Part shown: piece by piece, positions 1,259 to 11,200 of the stretch | Layout of the letters: each line of letters starts with the position of its first letter | How positions within the stretch are numbered: position 1 is the stretch's first letter | From: an uncultured Actinomycetes bacterium | GTDB lineage: Bacteria; Actinomycetota; Acidimicrobiia; Spongiisociales; DATADW01 | Length of the DNA stretch: 64,000 nucleotides | Assembly (NCBI GenBank): GCA_963824995.1 | Contig: CAWGRK010000017.1 | Location: 11,143-75,142, forward strand | Direction of reading: 5' to 3' | Program-made: the position numbers and the translations under genes | Notes under the pieces: model-generated | What the model saw: only the letters and a program-made list of their open reading frames with translations | The model's database searches: none | Told to the model about the DNA's origin: nothing

Positions 1259-1716
1259 GGATCCACCTCGAGCGTGGCGAGAACCTGGTTGACCTCCTCC
1301 ACGAGCGCCCTTCGGGAGGCGTGGCTGCCGAGAACGACATAGAGGCAGAAGGCACGACCTCCGTCGGAAAAGAACCGCTGGACACCGCTCTGACCCGGGA
1401 TGAGCCGCTGCAACGTTGACGTCGAGAAGTCATCGGGGTGGAGACGGTCGGGGCGAGCGGCGGCGAACAGCACCTTGCCCGCCGACGCCGGGTCGAACTC
1501 GAAGATCGAGACGAAGATGTCGTCGGAGCGCATCATCTCCACCGCGCCGCCGCCGTAATCGCCCCGCTCTGCGGGGAGTTGGAAGGTGGCGGCATGGAGA
1601 ACGGCGTGATTGGTGCCCACGGCTTGTGGGACCGCCTCGGTCCGGTACACCTCCCCCTCCCATCCAGTGGGGAGGTCGATTCGGAGCCGCTCAGAGTCGA
1701 TCTGCACAGAGGTCAC
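1255..1716 (-). CDS. hypothetical protein (no signal peptide or TM segment seen)
   Basis: The GTG at 1716 overlaps the stop of the upstream gene (GTGA). Composition is protein-like from VTSVQIDSERLRIDLPTGWEGEVY onward. The Arg/His-rich N-terminus of the 253-aa track ORF looks like read-through. Confidence 0.5.
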   Translation of the reverse strand: MTSVQIDSERLRIDLPTGWEGEVYRTEAVPQAVGTNHAVLHAATFQLPAERGDYGGGAVEMMRSDDIFVSIFEFDPASAGKVLFAAARPDRLHPDDFSTSTLQRLIPGQSGVQRFFSDGGRAFCLYVVLGSHASRRALVEEVNQVLATLEVDP

Positions 1717-2300
1717 CAGGCGGCGATCACTAGAACAGCCATGGCGGTGAGGGTGGCGATGGTGGCGATGCGGGCATAGGGCGCGGCCTCCGCCAGGCGG
1801 CGGTGCAGCAGCCTCAACCCACTGGGGTCGACAACGCGTGACGAGGCGAGCAGGGTCGCCGCCCTTGCTCCGCCGAAGATCGCTCCGATCATGATCCCGG
1901 TTCCGACGGAGCCGGTCAGGGCCGCCAAGGCAAAGGTGGCGTAGACCGCGGCGGTTGTGACGATGGTCACCACCCCGAGCCCCAGTTGAAAACCGAAGCC
2001 GGCGCCGTAGACCCAACCGCGGTAACGGTGCAACCAGTCATCGTCCACCTGCCGTCTCGCCCCGGGAAGCCGTCTCCCGGATGTGTCCAGCAGCGCCGCC
2101 GAGAGGCAGATGAGGACGGCCAGCCAGGCCACCACAACCGGGCCGGGTGAGAGCATTGCCCCGAGCACCGCCCCGATGGCGCCGGCGATCCCACCCGCAA
2201 TGACGCCACCTGCCACCGACCCGGCTATGTAGGCCGTGGCGGTGATCCAGAACCGGTTGTGTCTTGCCCGCTCGCCGAGCGGGTGGATGCTGGCCAGCAT
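1713..2300 (-). CDS. polytopic membrane protein (about 5-6 TM), family not recognised
   Basis: ATG 2300 is preceded by a GAGGGGAG RBS. Gly/Ala-rich TM helices. It is a member of the mauE/mauD-like operon. Confidence 0.6.
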   Translation of the reverse strand: MLASIHPLGERARHNRFWITATAYIAGSVAGGVIAGGIAGAIGAVLGAMLSPGPVVVAWLAVLICLSAALLDTSGRRLPGARRQVDDDWLHRYRGWVYGAGFGFQLGLGVVTIVTTAAVYATFALAALTGSVGTGIMIGAIFGGARAATLLASSRVVDPSGLRLLHRRLAEAAPYARIATIATLTAMAVLVIAAW

Positions 2301-2380: not shown

Positions 2381-3094
2381 TCATGTGTCATCCGTCTCGT
2401 CGGCGATCCGATAAAGGCTGGGGTGACCAGGCACGATTCCTCCGGCGAGCAGTTCACGGGTCTCGCGGTCGGAGACCGGCCCGTCTGCCATCAGATCGTC
2501 GGCGCGAGCTCGCTCGAGCAGTGAGACCATCTGCCGCCAAGAGGCAGCGGCTCCCTCACCGGCAACCCGTCCCGAAGGCCCGTCCACCAGGATGAAATAG
2601 GGCGCCACGGGTACCCGGTAGTGGTCCCACGCCTCGCTCGACATGGCGGTGGTGACACCGTGGGGAGCGAGTGCGGCGACCGTGGATTCGCTCTCGGCTT
2701 CGGGGCCCTTGGTCACCACCACCAGACGGACGCCCGCCGGGATGCGCTGGTCCTCGCCGAACGCCTTCCAAAACCCGGCACAGGTAGCACACCCGCTGCT
2801 GAGGAAGGCGAGCAGCGTCTGGCGCTCGACACCGACGACAGCCACCTTCACCGCCCCGCCACCCGGGCGCCTGCCGGAGAGGTCGGCCGCGGCGGTGGCC
2901 TCTGCCCGAGGTGGAGGCACGCCCGGTCTGGTTCGGAGGGGGACCGTTGCCGTCTCGCTGTCCTCGCCCGCCCCCAGTCGGTGCAGGCTGCGCAGGATGT
3001 CGGCATGGCTTCGCAGCAGTCCGAACACAAGGACGCCGAGCACCGCGATGACGACAGCCTCCAGGATCACGAGGGTGAGCAGCGCGGCATCCAT
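2381..3094 (-). CDS. membrane-anchored thioredoxin-like protein (MauD/TlpA-like)
   Basis: ATG 3094 overlaps the upstream stop (TGATG). It has an N-terminal TM segment LLTLVILEAVVIAVLGVLVFGLL and a CxxC motif (SSGCATCAGFW) in a thioredoxin-fold-like region. Confidence 0.7.
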   Translation of the reverse strand: MDAALLTLVILEAVVIAVLGVLVFGLLRSHADILRSLHRLGAGEDSETATVPLRTRPGVPPPRAEATAAADLSGRRPGGGAVKVAVVGVERQTLLAFLSSGCATCAGFWKAFGEDQRIPAGVRLVVVTKGPEAESESTVAALAPHGVTTAMSSEAWDHYRVPVAPYFILVDGPSGRVAGEGAAASWRQMVSLLERARADDLMADGPVSDRETRELLAGGIVPGHPSLYRIADETDDT

Positions 3095-4428
3095 CACGAA
3101 ACGCCCCAGACCAACGGCGTGCCGTCGGAAGGCCCAAAATCGAATGTGACCTGGGACCCCCCACCCGTGGGCGTCTGGCGCAACCGCCATTGTCCGGAGT
3201 CGAAGATCCCGATCCCATCGATTCCGTCGCCATTCCAATCACCTACGACGGGGGAACCGGCGGCCCCGAAGGTGAAGATCCGGTCGGCAGTCCCGCTCGT
3301 CAACGAATCGCGCAGCAGCCACTCACCGTCGCGGTACAGGCCGGGCGAGTCCCCGCCGCTGCCATCCCAATCACCAACGAGAGGAACGCCGTCGCCGCCT
3401 CCGTATTCGAACTCGATGTCTGGCGGTCCCGACCCGAGGCTTGTTCGGAGCATCCAGGTCCCGCCGCGCACCACACCTGGGAGGTCTCTTCCATCACCCG
3501 TCCAGTCGCCCACCACCGGGATGTCGCCGATGCGGCCGAACTCGAAGACGATGTCCGGCTCTCCGTCGCCTGGCGCGCTGCGTAGCAGCCAGACCAGCCC
3601 TGTATCGGAGAGGCGGCCAAAGCGGGTTCCGCGGACGATCCCGGCCGTGGCGGTCCCCGACGCAGTCCAGTCGCCCATCACCGGGTGGTCGCCGATGATC
3701 CCGTATTCGAACTTCTGGTTGGCGCCGCCATCGGTCAGCGAGTTGCGCAGCCGCCATGTGTTGCCGTTGACCACCGCGGGCCGTGCCATCAGCGGGGGAG
3801 GGGCGTGCAGGCACGGTCTGTCGTGGAAGCGGGTGTTGTTGTCGGTGGCGACCGTCGCCGAGCACGATTCGTCGCTCTCCCATGGTGGGGTGCAGGTCAC
3901 CACCCGGCACACGATGGGGCCAACACAGGCTACGTCCTGGTTGCACTGGCCATAGCGAAAAGCGGCACAGCACGCCTTCCGGTTGCCGCAGGTTCCGGCG
4001 CCGCAGCCACAGTCGCACAACCCGACACAACCCGACCCGCACGTCCCCGACGAACCGCAGCCACAACTCCCACAGTTGTCCACGTTGCAGTCGATGTAGT
4101 ACCTGGGCAGGTCGGCGCCATCCTGGACGCAGAAACCGCTGACGTCCGCCTTCCACCATCCAGCGGCGAGCGTCCCGGATGGGCAGGAGTTCGACCCGTA
4201 AAGGGTGCAGCAGAACTCGGTGTAACCGTCACAACACAGCGCCGAGCAGTCACAGGACGAGCCCGAGCAACTGCATATGGCCGAGTACGCCGACACCGGC
4301 CGCAGCGTGTAGGCGACCGGGGCGGTGGCCAGGGCCGATCCGACGAGGGCGGCGTTTCTCAGAAAGCCGCGCCTGCTGGTCCTCGCGGCGAGGAACCGGC
4401 TCCCAGCGTCTACCAGCCGGACGCTCAC
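3094..4428 (-). CDS. Tat-signal protein: cysteine-rich MauA-like (methylamine dehydrogenase light-chain-like) domain fused to about 5 FG-GAP/VCBS repeats
   Basis: GTG 4428 overlaps the mauE-like stop (GTGA). Twin-arginine motif TSRRGFLRNAALVGSALATAP. The domain has 28 Cys in 156 aa, including NSCPSGTLAAGWWKA...YYIDCN..CG. It is followed by repeats of the form W.LR....G......F.FG..GD.PVVGDW.GDG. Confidence 0.75.
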   Translation of the reverse strand: MSVRLVDAGSRFLAARTSRRGFLRNAALVGSALATAPVAYTLRPVSAYSAICSCSGSSCDCSALCCDGYTEFCCTLYGSNSCPSGTLAAGWWKADVSGFCVQDGADLPRYYIDCNVDNCGSCGCGSSGTCGSGCVGLCDCGCGAGTCGNRKACCAAFRYGQCNQDVACVGPIVCRVVTCTPPWESDESCSATVATDNNTRFHDRPCLHAPPPLMARPAVVNGNTWRLRNSLTDGGANQKFEYGIIGDHPVMGDWTASGTATAGIVRGTRFGRLSDTGLVWLLRSAPGDGEPDIVFEFGRIGDIPVVGDWTGDGRDLPGVVRGGTWMLRTSLGSGPPDIEFEYGGGDGVPLVGDWDGSGGDSPGLYRDGEWLLRDSLTSGTADRIFTFGAAGSPVVGDWNGDGIDGIGIFDSGQWRLRQTPTGGGSQVTFDFGPSDGTPLVWGVS

Positions 4429-5054
4429 CGACCGGCCCGGGCCGCGTTGAGACGGGGCAGTTCGGTCATCGCCATGACCACGCCTGCCACGCCGATCACC
4501 AGGAATGCGAGGAAGGGGATGCCCGCCCACGGCTGGGTTGCGACCAGGTCAACGATCCCGGATGGCGGCGCCACAAGGGCTGCGGTGAGGCACACCCCGG
4601 CGGCGACGAGATCGATAACAAGATGGGTCGATCCGGGGGGCGCATCCTCCTGGCCGAAACACCCACAGGAAGCGACCTCGATACGACCCGACATCGCCGC
4701 AGCGACAAAACCGGCGAACACCAGATAGAAGCCGGCGACCACCAGCGCCGCCGCCCGCCCGCCGAAGACCAGCGCCGCCGAACCGGCAACCAACTCGGCC
4801 GCTCCCATCAGCCGCGCCGCCACCCGCGCAGCAGGGATATGCAGCGCAGCCAGAGCGCCGGCGGCCGGACCCGGCCGGACCAACTTCATCGCCCCACCCA
4901 CAGCCAGCACCGCGGCAGCCAGGACGAATGGACCGCTCAGCACGCGGCGAGCATAGGCAGAGACCTTTCGGAAGACCACGTTGCCCACACGGCCCAACGG
5001 CGATGGCGGGGTAACATCTGGACCCCCCAACTGGCAGGAGGGTCGAATCTCCAT
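4425..5054 (-). CDS. MauE/DoxX-family redox-associated membrane protein
   Basis: Four TM helices and the characteristic SCGCFG motif (RIEVASCGCFGQEDAP). The start is uncertain: ATG 5054 or in-frame GTG at 4988 or 4979. Confidence 0.75.
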   Translation of the reverse strand: MEIRPSCQLGGPDVTPPSPLGRVGNVVFRKVSAYARRVLSGPFVLAAAVLAVGGAMKLVRPGPAAGALAALHIPAARVAARLMGAAELVAGSAALVFGGRAAALVVAGFYLVFAGFVAAAMSGRIEVASCGCFGQEDAPPGSTHLVIDLVAAGVCLTAALVAPPSGIVDLVATQPWAGIPFLAFLVIGVAGVVMAMTELPRLNAARAGR

Positions 5055-5071: not shown

Positions 5072-5602
5072 TTGGCCCGGGTGGTCCTGGTGCCGGTCAT
5101 CATGTGGTTGATAAGCGCCAACCAGCGGATCGACCATGGGTTTGGTTACGCCGCTGTGCTGTTCTTCGTGGCGGCGCTCACCGACTTCCTCGACGGATAC
5201 TTCGCCAGGCGTTGGGGGATAACGACCGTCCTCGGTGCCTTCCTCGACACCACGGCGGACAAGTTCCTCGTCACCGGGACGTTGCTCGCACTGATCGCGG
5301 TAGACCGGGCGTCGATCTGGGTGACTCTGATAATCGTGCTCAGGGAGTTCGTCGTAATGGCGCTGCGAGGACTGGCGGCGATGAGCGGCACCATGGTCAA
5401 GCCATCCATTTGGGGGAAGCTCAAGGCGAGCATCCAGTTCCTCGCCATACTCCTCGCCATCCTCCGGCTACCCGAGCCGTGGGGCCCGCTTTACCTCGAT
5501 GAGTGGGTCATGTGGCTGGCGGCGATCGTGACCATTGCGTCGGGGTGGCAATACGTGGCCAGTTTCTGGTCGGTGGTACGCGCTGTAGATACGCGGACGT
5601 GA
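5072..5602 (+). CDS. pgsA: CDP-diacylglycerol--glycerol-3-phosphate 3-phosphatidyltransferase (CDP-alcohol phosphatidyltransferase)
   Basis: Motif DFLDGYFARRWGITTVLGAFLDTTADK matches D(x2)DG(x2)AR...G(x3)D(x3)D. The TTG start at 5072 looks N-terminally short; the frame is open back to 5015 with only a CTG candidate. Confidence 0.8.
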   Translation: MARVVLVPVIMWLISANQRIDHGFGYAAVLFFVAALTDFLDGYFARRWGITTVLGAFLDTTADKFLVTGTLLALIAVDRASIWVTLIIVLREFVVMALRGLAAMSGTMVKPSIWGKLKASIQFLAILLAILRLPEPWGPLYLDEWVMWLAAIVTIASGWQYVASFWSVVRAVDTRT

Positions 5603-6606
5603 CGGTCGCAGGACCCGTAATGGTGACCGGCGCCACCGGCGTGGTTGGAGCGCCGATCCTGCGGCTCCTTGTGGAATCCGGACGGCGAGTCGGCGCTCTG
5701 GTTCGGTCTGCCGGCTCGGCCGAATCCGTCGAGGCGGCCGGAGCGGTGGCGGTCAACGGCGATCTGCTCAACCATGCTTCGCTGGTCCGCGCCTTCTCCG
5801 GGTTCGAGTCGGTGTACCACGTAGGTGGGGTCAACCAGTTCTGTGTCTCCGACTCCGGCCCCATGGAGGCGGCCAACATCGACGGTTCCCGCAACGTCGT
5901 CCGTGCATGCGCCGCAGTCGGGGTGCGGCGTCTCGTCTACACATCGTCGGCAGCGTCGATCGGGGAGGAGGAAGGCACCGTCGGTGACGAGCGCTCGCCG
6001 CACCGCGGATGGTTCCTGTCGGGATACGAGAGGTCCAAGTATCTGGCCGAGCAGGCGGTCTTCGCCGAAAGGACCCCGGTGGAGGTGGTTGCGGTCAACC
6101 CTTCCTCGGTGCAGGGACCGGGCAGAGCGAGCGGGACCGGAAAGCTCATCCTCCAGGTGATCGATGGAAGGCTTCCAGTGCTGGTGGATACGAGGGTGAG
6201 CATGGTGGACATCGACGACTGCGCCCGCGGGCACCTGCTGGCGGAGGCGAATGGCACCCCCGGACAGCGCTACATCCTCAACGGTTTCACGCTCGACATC
6301 CGCCAGGCGCTCGACCTCCTCGAACGGGTCACTGGACGGCGTGCGAAGGTTCGATTCCTCCCCGGGTGGGTGGCGCTCGCAGGCGCCGGCGCGTACGGGG
6401 CGGTCTCGAGACTGATCGGCCGGCACCCGAGGTTCTGTTGGGAGATGGCGCGCACCATGCTCCACGGTCACGCCTACGACGGTTCCAGGGCGACCCGCGA
6501 TCTCGGTTTGGCCTACACCCCGGCAGGGGAGACGCTCAGCCGTCTCTATTCGTGGGCCCTGGAGCAGGGCCTGGTTGGGCCGCCGACCAATGCGGCCAGG
6601 ACATGA
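5599..6606 (+). CDS. NAD-dependent epimerase/dehydratase (extended SDR)
   Basis: Rossmann motif VTGATGVVGAPILRLL and YxxxK (YERSKYLAE). GTG 5599 overlaps the pgsA stop (GTGA). ATG 5620 is an alternative start. Confidence 0.8.
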   Translation: MTVAGPVMVTGATGVVGAPILRLLVESGRRVGALVRSAGSAESVEAAGAVAVNGDLLNHASLVRAFSGFESVYHVGGVNQFCVSDSGPMEAANIDGSRNVVRACAAVGVRRLVYTSSAASIGEEEGTVGDERSPHRGWFLSGYERSKYLAEQAVFAERTPVEVVAVNPSSVQGPGRASGTGKLILQVIDGRLPVLVDTRVSMVDIDDCARGHLLAEANGTPGQRYILNGFTLDIRQALDLLERVTGRRAKVRFLPGWVALAGAGAYGAVSRLIGRHPRFCWEMARTMLHGHAYDGSRATRDLGLAYTPAGETLSRLYSWALEQGLVGPPTNAART

Positions 6607-7040
6607 CCCCGCCAGGACCAACGGCGCTCACCCCCGGCCAGGTGAACGACTACTTCCATTCGGGCTACCCGTCGGCCGCCGAGTCAGGCATCCGCTGCGA
6701 CGATCTCGGCGACGGTTGGGCGCAAGCGCGTTGGACGTACAACCCCAACCAACTTCGTCCGGGGGGTTACATAAGTGGTCCAACGCAGTTCACCCTCGCC
6801 GACACCGCCATCTGGTTCGCCGTCTTCACGGTTATCGGGATTGCGCCCATGGCGGTGACCACCGATCTCTCGATTTCTTTCCTGCGCCCCGCCACCGGCG
6901 CCGATCTCCTGGCACGGGCCGAACTCGACAGGGTGGGGCGGACCCGAATGTCGGCCCGCGTGCTGCTCTGGGTCGACGGCGCCCGTGACCGTCCCGTATC
7001 CCATGCGATCGGCAGCTACGCCCGGCCCCAGGATCTCTAA
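6603..7040 (+). CDS. PaaI-family hotdog-fold thioesterase
   Basis: ATGA overlap with the upstream gene. Hotdog-like sequence GGYISGPTQFTLADTAIWFAVF...TTDLSISFLRPA. Confidence 0.7.
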   Translation: MTPPGPTALTPGQVNDYFHSGYPSAAESGIRCDDLGDGWAQARWTYNPNQLRPGGYISGPTQFTLADTAIWFAVFTVIGIAPMAVTTDLSISFLRPATGADLLARAELDRVGRTRMSARVLLWVDGARDRPVSHAIGSYARPQDL

Positions 7041-7159
7041 CCGCTACCCGCCAACCGGTGAGTGGAGGGGGTTCCGCTAGTCTTCCACGGTCCGGGAACC
7101 AGGCGCTTCTCGCCGCCGTCTCATACCGGTCGCTCCCTTTCGATCCAAGTCGAGCCTTC

Positions 7160-8171
7160 ATGGACACGTTGACCCAACCGAAAACCAATCCCCCCCGCCC
7201 ACCATCCCGCCAGCCTGTGCGTAGGCGTCGCCGGCGGGGCCGGGGGTGGGTGCTCTTCTTCCTGCTCCTGGCAGTTGTTGCCGTCTTTGCCGCTGCCGGC
7301 TACGTCTATCTCGACCAACTCGCCATGGATCGCGTGTCCGTGGACACCCTGTCGGCGGCGGGAGGACCGACCAACTACCTGATCGTCGGATCCGACAGCC
7401 GTGAGGACCTTCCCGACGATCTGGAGGGGAACTTCGGTGACTTCAGCGGCTCCCGTTCCGACGTGATCATCCTCGCCCATGTAACCGACGGGCGTCGCCA
7501 GCTGCTCAGCCTGCCGCCGCGACCTCAAGGTGGACATTCCCGGTGAGGGCACCAACCGGATAAACGCCGCCTACGCCTTTGGCGGTCCTGAGCTGCTCAC
7601 CGAGACGGTCATCGATGAGTTCGGCATGCCCGTTCACCATTACCTCGAGGTCGACTTCGGGGGCTTCGCATCGATAATCGACGCCGTGGGCGGGATCGAA
7701 CTCGATATCCCCTACCCGGCACGCGACCTCAAGTCCGGGCTCGAGATCGATGCGGGCGAGCAGACCGTGGACGGCGCAACTGCCCTCGCCTACGCCCGCT
7801 CGAGACAGTACGAGGAGCTGCGTGACGGAGAGTGGGTCCCTCGGGGTGGCGGCGACCCAGGCAGAACCTCGCGCCAGCGCGAGGTCATGCTCCAGGTGCT
7901 CGCCAAGGTGGGTAGCCCGGCGGTCCTCGTCCGCACCCCCGGCCTGGTCACCGCGGTCTCCTCCAACCTCACGGCCGACGAGGGGCTCTCGCTCTGGGAC
8001 CTGCTCCAAACCGGGGTGGCGATGCGGTTCGCCGGGGAGACCGACACCGTTTCCCTACCGGTGGTCAGTGCGCCGGAGAATGGCGTCGCCTATGTCGCCC
8101 GCGATGAGCCCGAAGCGACCGACATGATCGACGACTTCTCCGACGGGCGCCCCTTGGAAACCGAGGAGTAG
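7160..8171 (+). pseudogene. LytR-CpsA-Psr (LCP) family cell-envelope transferase, one +1 frame break as sequenced
   Basis: N-terminal TM, then NYLIVGSDSRE...RSDVIILAHV in frame 2. The conserved LSLP|RDLKVDIPG..NRINAAYAFGG continues in frame 0. There is an extra base near 7517 within ccgCcgc. Confidence 0.75.
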
Positions 8172-8251: not shown

Positions 8252-11200
8252 TTGGCTTCCGTCTTCCGTCTCTCTTCTACCATCTCGGGGCTCGTGCCCG
8301 CGCCGCTCGCTTCGCTGGTCGAACGGTGGCGGCCCCACAAACTCCCCGGTGCGACCGGGCGGCTCGTGGTGCCGCCCAATGCCCGCGCCATCCTTCTCGG
8401 CGGTCTGGCCGCCAAAGCTCCGGGCGCGGTACTGGCAGTCGTTCCCGGCGAGCGCGACGCCGAGGAGCTAGCCGACGACCTCGAGCTCTTCACCGAGCGT
8501 GTCGCTCTGCTGCCGGCATGGGAGACGCTGCCCTTCGAACACGTCTCACCCAACGTTGGCACCATGGCGCGAACGCGCCCGTGCCAGGCACGTCCTCAGC
8601 GAAAACGAGCCGGGAACGGTGGTGGTGGCGTCGGCCCGCTCGGTCTCGCAGCGGGTCAGCCCTTCGGCGGTGGAACCGATCACTGCGGAACCAGGCGAGG
8701 ACGTTGGGTTCGAGCGGCTCATCAGGGACCTCGCCCTGGCGGGCTATCACCGATCCGATCGGGTGGAGGCCCGGGGTGAAGTGGCGGTGCGGGGCGGGAT
8801 CATCGACGTGTTCCCCGCCCAAGGCGATGAGCCGGTCCGGATCGAGTTGTGGGGCGATGAGGTCGACTCCATCCGCGTGTTCGCCATCTCGAGCCAGCGG
8901 TCGATCGAGCCGGCCCCTGGGCTGGTGGCCTACCCAGCACGGGAGTTTCGTCCGGAGGGTCTGGTGGCAGATGAGGCGCGCCGCCTGCTCAACACCGAGC
9001 CATGGGCCGCCGCCACCTGGGAGCGCCTCGCCGAAGGGCTCGTCTTCCCCGGCATGGAGTCGTGGCTCCCGTGGATGACCCCACCGGTCACGGTCCTCGA
9101 CGAGCTTCCGCCTGGTGCCCGGTTGGTGGTCTTCGACCCTGTGAGGGCGGGTGACCGCAGCCGCGATCTGGTCAAGGAGGAGGCGGAGCTCGCAGCGGCG
9201 CTGGCCCCGACGTGGGGTCACGGCGCTCCCGAGGCTGGAGAGCACCCCTCCCTGTACCTCGATCTCGGCCGGTCGCTCGAGGACCGCGATCTGCTGGCTG
9301 CCCCACCGCTGGCGGCCGGACCGAGCGATGATCGGATCGAGGTTCGTGGGCTCGACGCCACCCCTGGGGACCCCGAGTCGATTGGGCGCGGTCTCGACCG
9401 ATTGATGGCGAGAGGGACCACGGTCGTGGTGGCGATGGACGGCGAGACCGCCGCCGACCGGGTGGCCGGAGTCCTTGCGGACGAGGGTCTTGCCCTTCCC
9501 CGCCGCCCCACGCTCGACAAAGTGGAGTCGGCTGTGCTGTCGATCGGGATCCACCGCGGTTTCGTGCTTCCTTCGCTCGACATCGCCGTCCTCGGCGAAC
9601 AGGAGATCGCCGGTAGGCGACGAGCGCACCGCCGTGCCGCCCGCCGCGCCCCGGCAACCGGAGGGGACTACCGGGACCTCACGCCTGGCGACTATGTGGT
9701 CCATCATCGCCACGGGATCGGTCGCTTCGAGGGGATGGTGACCCGGAGCATCGCCGGTGTGGAGCGTGATTACCTGGTGGTGGCATACGCAGCGGGTGAT
9801 CGCCTCTATGTCCCCACCGACCAGCTTGCTGCAGTGCGCAAGTACACCGGCGGAGAGGAACCGCGCATCTCCCGGATGGGGGGCAAGGACTGGGCCGAGA
9901 CCCGGGCTCGGGTGCGGAGGGCGGTGGCGGCGGTGGCGGAGCAGGTTGTGGCGCTGCACCGCGCCCGTGCCGCAGCCAAAGGGCACGCATACCCCCCCGA
10001 CGCAGCCTGGCAGCGGGAGATGGAGTCCGCCTTTCCATACGAGGAGACGCCCGATCAACTCACCGCCATCGTCGATGTCAAGGACGACATGCAGCAGGAC
10101 CGGCCGATGGATCGGTTGGTCTTTGGCGATGTTGGGTACGGGAAGACCGAGGTGGCGATTCGTGCCGCCTTCAAAGCGGTCCTCGACGGCAGGCAGGTGG
10201 CGGTGCTGGTGCCCACCACGCTCTTGGCTCAGCAGCACCACCAGACATTCTCCGAGCGCTTCGCCCCCTACCCGATCAGGGTCGAGGTGCTCTCCCGGTT
10301 CCTCACCCAGCGCCAGCAGAAGACCGTCGTCGAAGCGATGAGGCGCGGCGACGTGGACGTGGTCATCGGCACCCACCGGCTGCTCTCCGACGACATCCAC
10401 TGGAAGGACCTCGGACTGCTCGTGGTAGACGAGGAGCAGCGCTTCGGGGTGAACGCCAAGGACGCCATAAAGCAGCTCCGGGTCGGGGTGGATGTCCTCA
10501 CCCTCACCGCCACGCCGATCCCGCGGACGCTTGAGATGGCGCTCACCGGCATACGGGACGTGAGCCACATCCGTACACCCCCAGAGGACAGGCACCCCAT
10601 CCTCACCTACGTCGGTCCATACGACCAACAGGCGGTAGCCGCGGCGATCCGTCGTGAGTTGCTGCGCGAAGGACAGGTCTTCTACGTGCACAACCGGGTG
10701 CGGTCGATCGAACGTGCCGTCGCCCAGTTGAGGGAACTGGTCCCCGATGCCAGGTACGCGGTGGCTCATGGCCAGATGTCCGAAGGGCAACTCGAGCAGG
10801 TCATGCTCGACTTCTGGAGCGGTGAAGCCGACGTCCTCGTAGCCACGACCATCATCGAGTCCGGACTCGACCTGCCCCAGGTGAACACGCTTGTGGTGGA
10901 GCGGGCCGACCTGCTCGGTCTCGCCCAGCTATATCAGTTGCGCGGCCGTGTCGGTCGGTCCAGCCAGCGGGCCTACGCCTACCTGTTCCACCCGACTGAT
11001 CAATCGATCACCGAAGAGGCCCACCGGCGGCTCGAGGCGATCGGCGAGGCGACCGACCTGGGGTCCGGTTTCCAGTTGGCTCTGCGCGATCTGGAGATCC
11101 GCGGTGCCGGTTCCGTCCTCGGCGAGATCCAGTCGGGGCAGATCGCGGCGGTCGGCTTCGACCTCTACGCCGAGATGGTGGCCGACGCCATCCGCCAGAT

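Follow-up and report, generated by a model that had tools for sequence, protein, structure and literature searches.

The 64-kb window analyzed here (64,000 nucleotides of contig CAWGRK010000017.1, forward-strand positions 11,143–75,142, assembly GCA_963824995.1) comes from an uncultured Actinomycetes bacterium of the class Acidimicrobiia. Close to its left end, it carries a run of minus-strand genes centered on a gene for a cysteine-rich, two-domain protein, which is accompanied by homologues of MauE, MauD, and MauF, the accessory proteins of methylamine dehydrogenase (MADH). The gene of this target protein lies in an open reading frame (ORF) at 3094–4530 (minus strand). Its likely start is the GTG at 4428, because this codon forms a 4-nt overlap (GTGA) with the stop codon of the MauE gene lying upstream and because homologues start at an equivalent "MS..LV." The gene then spans 3094–4428, ends with a stop codon at 3094–3096, and encodes 444 amino acids. 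These are organized in a twin-arginine translocation (Tat) leader (residues 1–49, nt 4282–4428), a Cys-rich domain (residues 50–212, nt 3793–4281), and five FG-GAP-like repeats (residues 213–444, nt 3097–3792).

The leader scores above the cut-off of the Tat signal model TIGR01409 (17.8 versus 16.7 bits) and has an S/T-R-R-x-F-L motif with a hydrophobic stretch and an A-x-A site behind it. Its RTSRRGFL sequence is invariant or nearly so in the family, and AlphaFold2 models the leader as a helical segment with a low predicted local distance difference test score (pLDDT). Judging from the A-x-A consensus, the signal-peptidase site probably follows an AYS-A/AYA-A motif. A twin-arginine signal had been proposed in an earlier note on this DNA, and the count of 28 cysteines given there for residues 51–206 (nt 3811–4278) is exact, as are the coordinates. 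No cysteine occurs elsewhere in the protein.

The earlier note also described leader, Cys-rich domain, and five FG-GAP-type repeats as parts of one polypeptide. This polypeptide is real and conserved across the family. That an assembly or frameshift error has fused two genes, a possibility the note itself had raised, has a negligible probability, as more than 2,220 homologues of ∼440 amino acids match over the full length. Full-length homologues with the same domain order and length are found in thousands, in independent assemblies that include closed chromosomes. Several long antisense ORFs of 300–440 amino acids lie opposite the target gene (for example, 2621–3955 and 3685–4728, plus strand); they are rich in Arg, Pro, and Gly and represent typical shadow ORFs of high-GC DNA, not genes.

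The >2,220 homologues were matched in a search of 5.8 billion proteins. The best 120 share 46–91% identity with the target over 91–100% of the query and are ∼430–460 amino acids long, except for a few MauE fusions of 620–660 amino acids. They are essentially without a precomputed Pfam domain (the exception, P0027, has PF13517), and homologues in metagenome-assembled genomes (MAGs) of Acidimicrobiia are annotated as "hypothetical" or "Tat signal domain-containing." When one genome per GTDB species was scanned, at least 570 species genomes were found to encode a relative. From these and other sources, we assembled 84 target loci of 2.7–17 kb each, 80 from species-level genomes and 4 from metagenome contigs; nearly all of the 80 are labeled Acidimicrobiia or Acidimicrobiales. 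The architecture, which had been called unusual, is thus the norm within this lineage. Literature searches returned no description of the target family or of a MauF-containing cassette outside mau clusters.

The C-terminal domain is predicted to be a five-bladed β-propeller of the FG-GAP type. Its repeats of ∼45 residues follow the form W.LR...G....F.FG..GD.PVVGDW.GDG, start at Trp-225, Trp-280, Trp-325, Trp-370, and Trp-414, and carry GDW motifs at positions 252, 307, 352, and 396. In the AlphaFold2 model, residues 213–444 fold into five sets of four β-strands each, 20 in all (pLDDT 84–96). A Foldseek search of the PDB with the full-length model was dominated by this domain and returned propellers, among them PVL and AAL2, two fungal lectins of the FG-GAP type, and a KICSTOR subunit (E 3e-5 to 3e-3, probability 1.0). 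The assignment of the repeats as propeller-type blades, made beforehand by eye, is thereby borne out. With FG-GAP/VCBS propellers such as the N-terminal domain of integrin α, PVL (PDB code 2BWR), AAL2 (PDB code 4TQM), and Bap1 (PDB code 6MLT), the target shares the motif F.FG..GD.PVVGDW.GDG..D and four-stranded blades, whereas it has five repeats instead of the seven or eight seen in those structures. Pfam models of FG-GAP repeats match only below threshold. PF13517 (FG-GAP_3) reaches 10.9 bits on the window protein (cut-off 26.9) and is the commonest subthreshold Pfam match in the family (10 of 37 members, best E 9.5e-4). FG-GAP-type propellers usually bind ligands such as sugars or proteins, often together with Ca2+.

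In MADH, the light chain (MauA) docks on a separate propeller, the heavy chain MauB, and the propeller of the target had been considered as a fused stand-in for it. As a matter of descent, this idea finds no support: the domain is a five-bladed FG-GAP-type propeller and shows no similarity to MauB in phmmer searches. A "light chain fused to its propeller" would therefore be an analogy at most.

The Cys-rich domain is more conserved (64% identity) than the whole protein (∼54%). Besides its cysteines, it contains several highly conserved residues, namely Arg-109, Tyr-111, Asp-113, the Phe-157–Arg-158–Tyr-159–Gly-160–Gln-161 segment, Arg-175, Trp-183, and His-202. Counted from behind the RR motif, the cysteines add up to an even number in 110 of 118 homologues, with values of 20, 22, 24, 26, and 28. 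Moreover, cysteine columns covary (Cys-138/Cys-153, r = 0.98; Cys-74/Cys-206, r = 0.96), and Cys-52, Cys-54, Cys-61, and Cys-66 are gained or lost as a block. These even counts and the paired gain and loss indicate a disulfide knot instead of a metal site. By this reasoning, the cysteines form structural disulfides, 10–14 per molecule across the family and as many as 14 in the window protein. Part of the knot is a segment of about residues 125–156 that follows Cys-124 and includes an insertion of ∼23 residues relative to MauA. It had been taken for a low-complexity insert; instead, it is a conserved, Cys-patterned insertion in which Cys-140, Cys-142, Cys-147, and Cys-154 are invariant and which holds the covarying pair Cys-138/Cys-153.

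A domain that binds a metal-thiolate or iron–sulfur cluster, is assembled in the cytoplasm, and is exported folded by Tat was considered as well. Tat export is typical for cofactor-bearing proteins, and runs such as CGSCGCG and CDCGCG resemble CxC- and CxxC-like metal-binding motifs. However, cysteines that change in steps of two and in specific covarying pairs rule against such a cluster, a dedicated disulfide oxidase and a thioredoxin-like protein are encoded in co-translation with the target and in part fused to it, and neither the whole protein nor the isolated domain matches a ferredoxin or metallothionein family in Pfam. We therefore regard a metal cluster as very improbable.

The genes around the target form a cassette in the order MauE, target, MauD-like, (MauF-like), a ∼153-amino acid protein, and (SLH-domain protein). 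We surveyed the cassette in two loci with called genes and, by ORF and phmmer analysis, in the 84 loci. Next to the target, present in all 84, the MauE gene was found in 81 loci, the MauD-like gene in 82, the MauF-like gene in 55, the ∼153-amino acid gene in 74, and the SLH gene in 46. In the window, start and stop codons overlap by 4 nt at four of the five junctions (4425–4428, 3094–3097, 1713–1716, and 1255–1258), which suggests that the cassette genes are probably co-translated.

Upstream of the target, the gene at 4425–5054 (minus strand) encodes a MauE-family membrane disulfide oxidase (PF07291, 47.9 bits; cut-off, 27); the gene may in fact begin downstream of 5054. Of 80 MauE orthologues, 76 have the CGCFG active-site motif, which agrees with the CXC-F-G site of MauE, an oxidase that can replace DsbB and that acts as a generalist occurring far beyond mau clusters (bioRxiv 10.64898/2026.03.05.709764). 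Downstream, the gene at 2381–3097 (minus strand), whose GTG start overlaps the target stop, encodes a MauD-like, membrane-anchored thioredoxin-fold protein of 238 amino acids with a CATC motif. Its sole NCBIfam match is the MauD model TIGR02661, below the cut-off (E 1.1e-4). In phmmer searches of the window and the 84 loci, canonical MauD from Methylobacterium matched the MauD-like gene in 38 loci (best E 3.2e-7), and the CxxC motif is kept in 80 of 81 MauD-like proteins. The mauE- and mauD-like neighbors that had been noticed at this locus are thus genuine, and a mauF homologue is present in addition.

This MauF homologue (1713–2300, minus strand) is a polytopic membrane protein of 195 amino acids that is essentially free of cysteine, as are most members of its family. 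The family hidden Markov model (HMM) matches MauF from a canonical Methylobacterium mauFBEDACJG cluster with 50.6 bits (E 1.4e-15; BLASTP, 3e-4), and in the phmmer survey canonical MauF matched the MauF-like gene in 53 loci (best E 2.1e-12). An identity as DsbD/CcdA was rejected, given that the Pfam model DsbD_2 matches only below threshold, that the protein is essentially Cys-free, and that MauF is a far better match. Canonical MauF itself (locus L005, 4599–5456) is covered by no Pfam-A or NCBIfam model, which explains why homologues such as the one at 1713–2300 go unannotated or are mislabeled as weak DsbD_2. At the same Methylobacterium locus (GCA_030161815.1), mauB (5528–6756) is split into two ORFs of 164 and 245 amino acids that both match PF06433, which suggests a frameshift or a pseudogene in that assembly.

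The last two genes of the run lie further downstream on the minus strand. A conserved protein of ∼153 amino acids with no evident signal peptide is encoded at 1255–1716, its GTG start overlapping the MauF-like stop. The family ranges from ∼153 to 165 amino acids (for example, locus L001, 10691–11191), has invariant residues at Pro-16, Trp-19, Gly-55, Gln-113, Phe-115, and Gly-120–Arg-121, and found no match in Pfam, NCBIfam, or a profile search of the PDB. Quite speculatively, it might act in the cytoplasm as a chaperone of the Tat substrate. The final gene (269–1258), whose start again overlaps the preceding stop, encodes a protein with three SLH (cell wall-binding) domains (PF00395, E 9e-23). 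Further envelope-related genes in the window are pgsA and those for an HpnA-like epimerase and an LCP protein. An LCP gene appears to be split into two overlapping plus-strand ORFs, probably by a frameshift or sequencing error: 7058–7546 holds the transmembrane and N-terminal part and has no Pfam match, and in 7530–8171 the match to LytR_cpsA_psr (PF03816) begins only at profile position 37.

In some genomes, MauE and the target are a single polypeptide of 620–660 amino acids (loci L043, L051, L052, and L060; proteins P0054, P0099, P0106, and P0117). In addition, two MAGs contain the whole cassette in duplicate (L032 and L053 in SMAG_U14487; L037 and L074 in SMAG_U10410). Fusions and whole-cassette duplicates speak for a dedicated instead of a general enzyme–substrate relationship and point to maturation genes that serve the target. 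As to the fusions themselves, which join an oxidase to its presumed substrate in the manner of a Rosetta stone, at least two (P0099 and P0106) lack the RR motif. The duplicate cassettes are divergent, and each has its own MauE and MauD-like gene; the copy in L074 has neither a MauF-like nor an SLH gene.

Homologues of mauE, mauD, and mauF thus all lie beside the target gene. Other mau genes do not: with Methylobacterium queries, phmmer found no match to MauB, MauG, amicyanin (MauC), or MauJ in the window or the 84 loci. Likewise, no ORF of the window contains two CxxCH motifs (as in a di-heme protein), and the Pfam labels of loci L001 and L003 include no MauB (PF06433), MauG (PF03150), or amicyanin.

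MauA, the light chain of MADH and of aromatic amine dehydrogenase (AADH) (PF02975; PDB codes 2BBK_L, 1MG2_B, and 2AGY_D), is itself Tat-exported and rich in disulfides (bioRxiv 10.64898/2026.03.05.709764). With it the target shares a Tat-type leader, a small disulfide-dense domain, and the colinear block order C..C..DG..C(C)..G.N.CPPG[TS]..W..C..Y..Y.DC..C.C.C ... [FY]R........C.G ... C. For the comparison, we verified the MauA reference sequence against 1MG2_B and gathered true MauA homologues for a profile. Alignment of the Cys-rich domain with mature MauA by hhalign gave a score of 22.2 (E 0.0066, probability 5.7%), which rose to 24.5 when larger alignments were used (E 0.0018, probability 14.6%). 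At a permissive threshold for maximum accuracy (MAC) alignment, the match is colinear over 85–95 columns, which is nearly the whole of mature MauA.

In this alignment, Cys-59, Cys-65, Asp-67–Gly-68, and Cys-73 of the family correspond to Cys-23, Cys-29, Asp-32–Gly-33, and Cys-38 of MauA, and the C82-P-x-G-T motif corresponds to C46-P-P-G-T. They are followed by Trp-91/Trp-92 (Trp-57 in MauA), Cys-100 (Cys-61), Y111-x-D113-C114 (Y74-R-D76-C77/78), Cys-122 (Cys-86), and Cys-124 (Cys-88), and, beyond the insertion, by Phe-157–Arg-158 (Tyr-98–Arg-99), C168-x-G170 (C109-F-G111), and Cys-179 (Cys-121). Ten of the 12 MauA cysteines thereby align with invariant or near-invariant cysteines of the family; Cys-36 and one of Cys-77/Cys-78 stay unmatched. 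The MauA disulfide pairings used for comparison are those of the UniProt/PDB annotation. The first tryptophan of the tryptophan tryptophylquinone (TTQ) cofactor, Trp-57, has its counterpart in the invariant Trp-91–Trp-92 pair (the residue that aligns differs between runs), and Asp-76 has an invariant counterpart in Asp-113. In contrast, the position of the second TTQ tryptophan, Trp-108, is taken by Ala-167 in a variable column flanked by the conserved Cys-168 and Gly-170, and Asp-67, which aligns with Asp-32, varies in the family. An alignment made by eye in the earlier note, including DIIWCFG against DVACVG, was thus reproduced independently by hhalign. Its suggestion that a canonical TTQ may not form agrees with the variable Ala at the Trp-108 position and with the absence of MauG from the window and the 84 loci.

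The full-length AlphaFold2 model, with pLDDT values of 63–84 in the Cys-rich domain, has as its main β elements there the strands with GWWKA (residues 86–94) and RYYIDC (residues 109–116). In view of the MADH structure, these would be the strands to be expected from the alignment with the Trp-57 and Asp-76 strands of MauA. From the colinear alignment, the 10 of 12 aligned cysteines, and the MauE, MauD, and MauF homologues nearby, we consider a common ancestry of the Cys-rich domain with MauA likely. Most likely, the N-terminal domain of ∼160 residues would be a very distant, cofactor-less derivative of the MauA scaffold with an extra Cys-rich insertion.

Taken as a whole, we hold, with somewhat better than even confidence, that the target is a Tat-exported protein in which a MauA-derived, TTQ-less disulfide module is joined to a propeller of the ligand-binding type and is oxidatively folded by a dedicated set of MauE, MauD, and MauF homologues. 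The precursor would be exported by Tat and its leader removed. The co-translated MauE, through its CGCFG site, would then re-oxidize the membrane-anchored MauD-like thioredoxin at its CxxC motif, and the MauD-like protein would in turn introduce or shuffle the 10–14 disulfides of the Cys-rich domain. We infer this relay from the gene families, their synteny, the MauE–target fusions, and the cysteine statistics. The MauF homologue may help in the same manner as for MauA. No TTQ would be made on the target, given the absence of the second tryptophan and of MauG, MauB, and amicyanin. As a speculative last step, the mature protein might bind or scaffold partners at the cell envelope, perhaps in concert with the SLH protein of the same operon; this site of action is probable in view of the SLH protein and the neighboring pgsA, HpnA-like epimerase, and LCP genes.

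Several observations weigh against this reading. PF02975 matched neither the whole protein, nor the isolated Cys-rich domain (E ≤ 10), nor any of 37 family members, and a locally built MauA HMM scored negative on all 120 members tested. When a profile of the mature MauA domain was run against 1.84 billion representative sequences, no protein of the target family was among the best 150 of 241 matches; these 150 belong to the MauA/AADH type or represent fragments or frameshifted ORF calls, and the target architecture does not occur among them. Family profile and protein searches of the PDB returned no MADH or AADH chain, only noise from Tat leaders. The hhalign scores are reached by 2–4% of column-shuffled alignments (null scores of 14.9 ± 3.1, 6 of 150 reaching the score, and 14.3 ± 3.3, 2 of 120). 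With leaders included, hhalign returns a probability of 96% (E 4.8e-9), which we discarded as evidence of homology to MauA, since the leader alone gives this score. In a control with 14 unrelated Tat signals, the leader HMM of the family gave 26.9 bits for NosZ and 15.8 for DmsA, compared with a median of 15.8 and a maximum of 29.4 for MauA leaders. The likeness of the leaders is thus a generic Tat effect, because unrelated Tat signals score as high as those of MauA. When the domain was modeled alone with AlphaFold2, confidence was poor (pLDDT 65.7), and a Foldseek search of the PDB with this model gave no match with E < 1.

Among the matches of the MauA profile, we noticed a MauA subfamily with SYNDCCG in place of AYRDCCG (P0252, P0264, P0269, P0294, and P0350), represented by frameshifted ORF calls of 300–436 amino acids on high-GC contigs. 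Several of these proteins have remnants of a CxxCH cytochrome-like tail, and P0264 and P0350 have remnants of a MauD-like CPVC gene upstream.

The description of the Cys-rich domain as light-chain-like finds weak support. Trp-57 and 10 of 12 cysteines have counterparts, the alignment is colinear, and MauE, MauD, and MauF keep company with the domain. Trp-108 has no counterpart, and PF02975, the MauA HMM, and Foldseek do not detect the relationship. By these profile searches, the target does not qualify as a formal member of PF02975 or of the TTQ enzyme family.

The negative searches, the shuffle statistics, and the generic leader likeness would all fit an independent, lineage-specific disulfide knot without MauA ancestry, in which the CPPGT...W...Y.DC likeness is convergent or due to chance. 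MauE, MauD, and MauF would then be a folding kit for any very Cys-rich exported protein, and the remaining mechanism would be the one described above. The generalist nature of MauE (bioRxiv 10.64898/2026.03.05.709764) is compatible with this explanation, and a MauE/MauD context is not unique to MauA, as such pairs also accompany unrelated Cys-rich precursor peptides in Streptomyces (PMC7794033). Chance, however, would have to account for an alignment that is weak but colinear over almost all of MauA and that places 10 of 12 cysteines, Trp-57, and Asp-76 on invariant residues. It would also leave the MauF homologue and its 50.6 bits to be explained; apart from this family, MauF is not known outside mau clusters. 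An independent origin of the knot appears unlikely to us on balance, but it is the alternative we take most seriously.

More doubtful still is a new quinoprotein or redox enzyme, in which the invariant Trp-91/Trp-92 would carry a tryptophan-derived cofactor formed without MauG (for example, a mono-hydroxylated or quinone tryptophan, or a Trp–Cys or Trp–Trp cross-link), with the propeller in the scaffolding role of the heavy chain. The first hydroxylation of Trp-57 in MADH is not known to need MauG, and MauF is retained in the cassette. In a family of only ∼54% identity, GWW, Asp-113 (aligned with the catalytic Asp-76), and the polar and aromatic residues of the Cys-rich domain listed above are invariant or highly conserved, and this domain surpasses the whole protein in conservation. 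Such a pattern would also fit a catalytic site and in this respect counts against a purely structural module; nevertheless, a catalytic or cofactor-bearing role of the knot seems to us distinctly improbable. Trp-108 has no counterpart, Asp-32 of MADH is not conserved, and the cassette encodes no MauG, amicyanin, other redox partner, flavoprotein, or radical-SAM enzyme; nor does the ∼153-amino acid protein match a cofactor-related family. It would be a comparable long shot that the family represents a large, unrecognized tryptophylquinone-type branch in the Gram-positive Acidimicrobiia, that is, a single-chain surface dehydrogenase for amines or other substrates in which an FG-GAP propeller replaces the heavy chain.

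Among known systems, the maturation module of the mau small subunit (MauA with MauF, MauE, and MauD) comes closest, and the cassette would work alike as far as sequence tells. As in the methylotroph mauFBEDACJGLMN cluster (L005), all three accessory homologues share an operon with a Tat substrate rich in cysteine, the CGCFG site is found in MauE, and the MauD-like protein combines a transmembrane anchor with a CxxC thioredoxin fold. Differences exist in each component. The genes are arranged as E, substrate, D, F, in contrast to the canonical F-B-E-D-A; the alignment of the MauF homologue extends over 152 profile positions, and a stretch of about 90 residues from the beginning of canonical MauF is missing in it; the MauD-like protein is far under the TIGR02661 cut-off; and MauE is fused to the substrate in some genomes. 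The substrate itself differs from MauA by 8–16 additional cysteines, by the ∼23-residue insertion, by the missing Trp-108, and by its covalent link to a propeller. It goes undetected by PF02975 and MauA HMMs, has no MauB, MauG, or amicyanin nearby, and is found in Acidimicrobiia (Actinomycetota), whereas MauA is found in Proteobacteria.

A second comparison is offered by candidate precursors of peptides that are made on ribosomes and modified after translation (RiPPs) in Streptomyces (decRiPPter families), in which MauE, with or without MauD, adjoins a gene whose product contains eight cysteines or more (PMC7794033). In both cases, an actinobacterial MauE accompanies a Cys-rich product without a methylamine pathway. 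The Streptomyces products are short peptides, whereas the target is a two-domain Tat protein of 444 amino acids that possesses a propeller and has a MauF homologue in its cassette.

If the preferred reading holds, no use of the MauE/MauD/MauF trio other than in this cassette would be known beyond the methylamine and aromatic amine dehydrogenases. Its substrate would keep a MauA-type scaffold without TTQ, so that the role of MauF and the MauE–MauD disulfide relay could be studied without cofactor biosynthesis, and the MauE–substrate fusions indicate which partners are in contact. Should the domain carry a modified tryptophan after all, protein-derived quinone cofactors would extend to a new phylum and to a new biosynthetic route. 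In either case, the Cys-rich domain represents a domain family without a Pfam model, and at least 570 species of a widespread and poorly cultured class of bacteria possess it.

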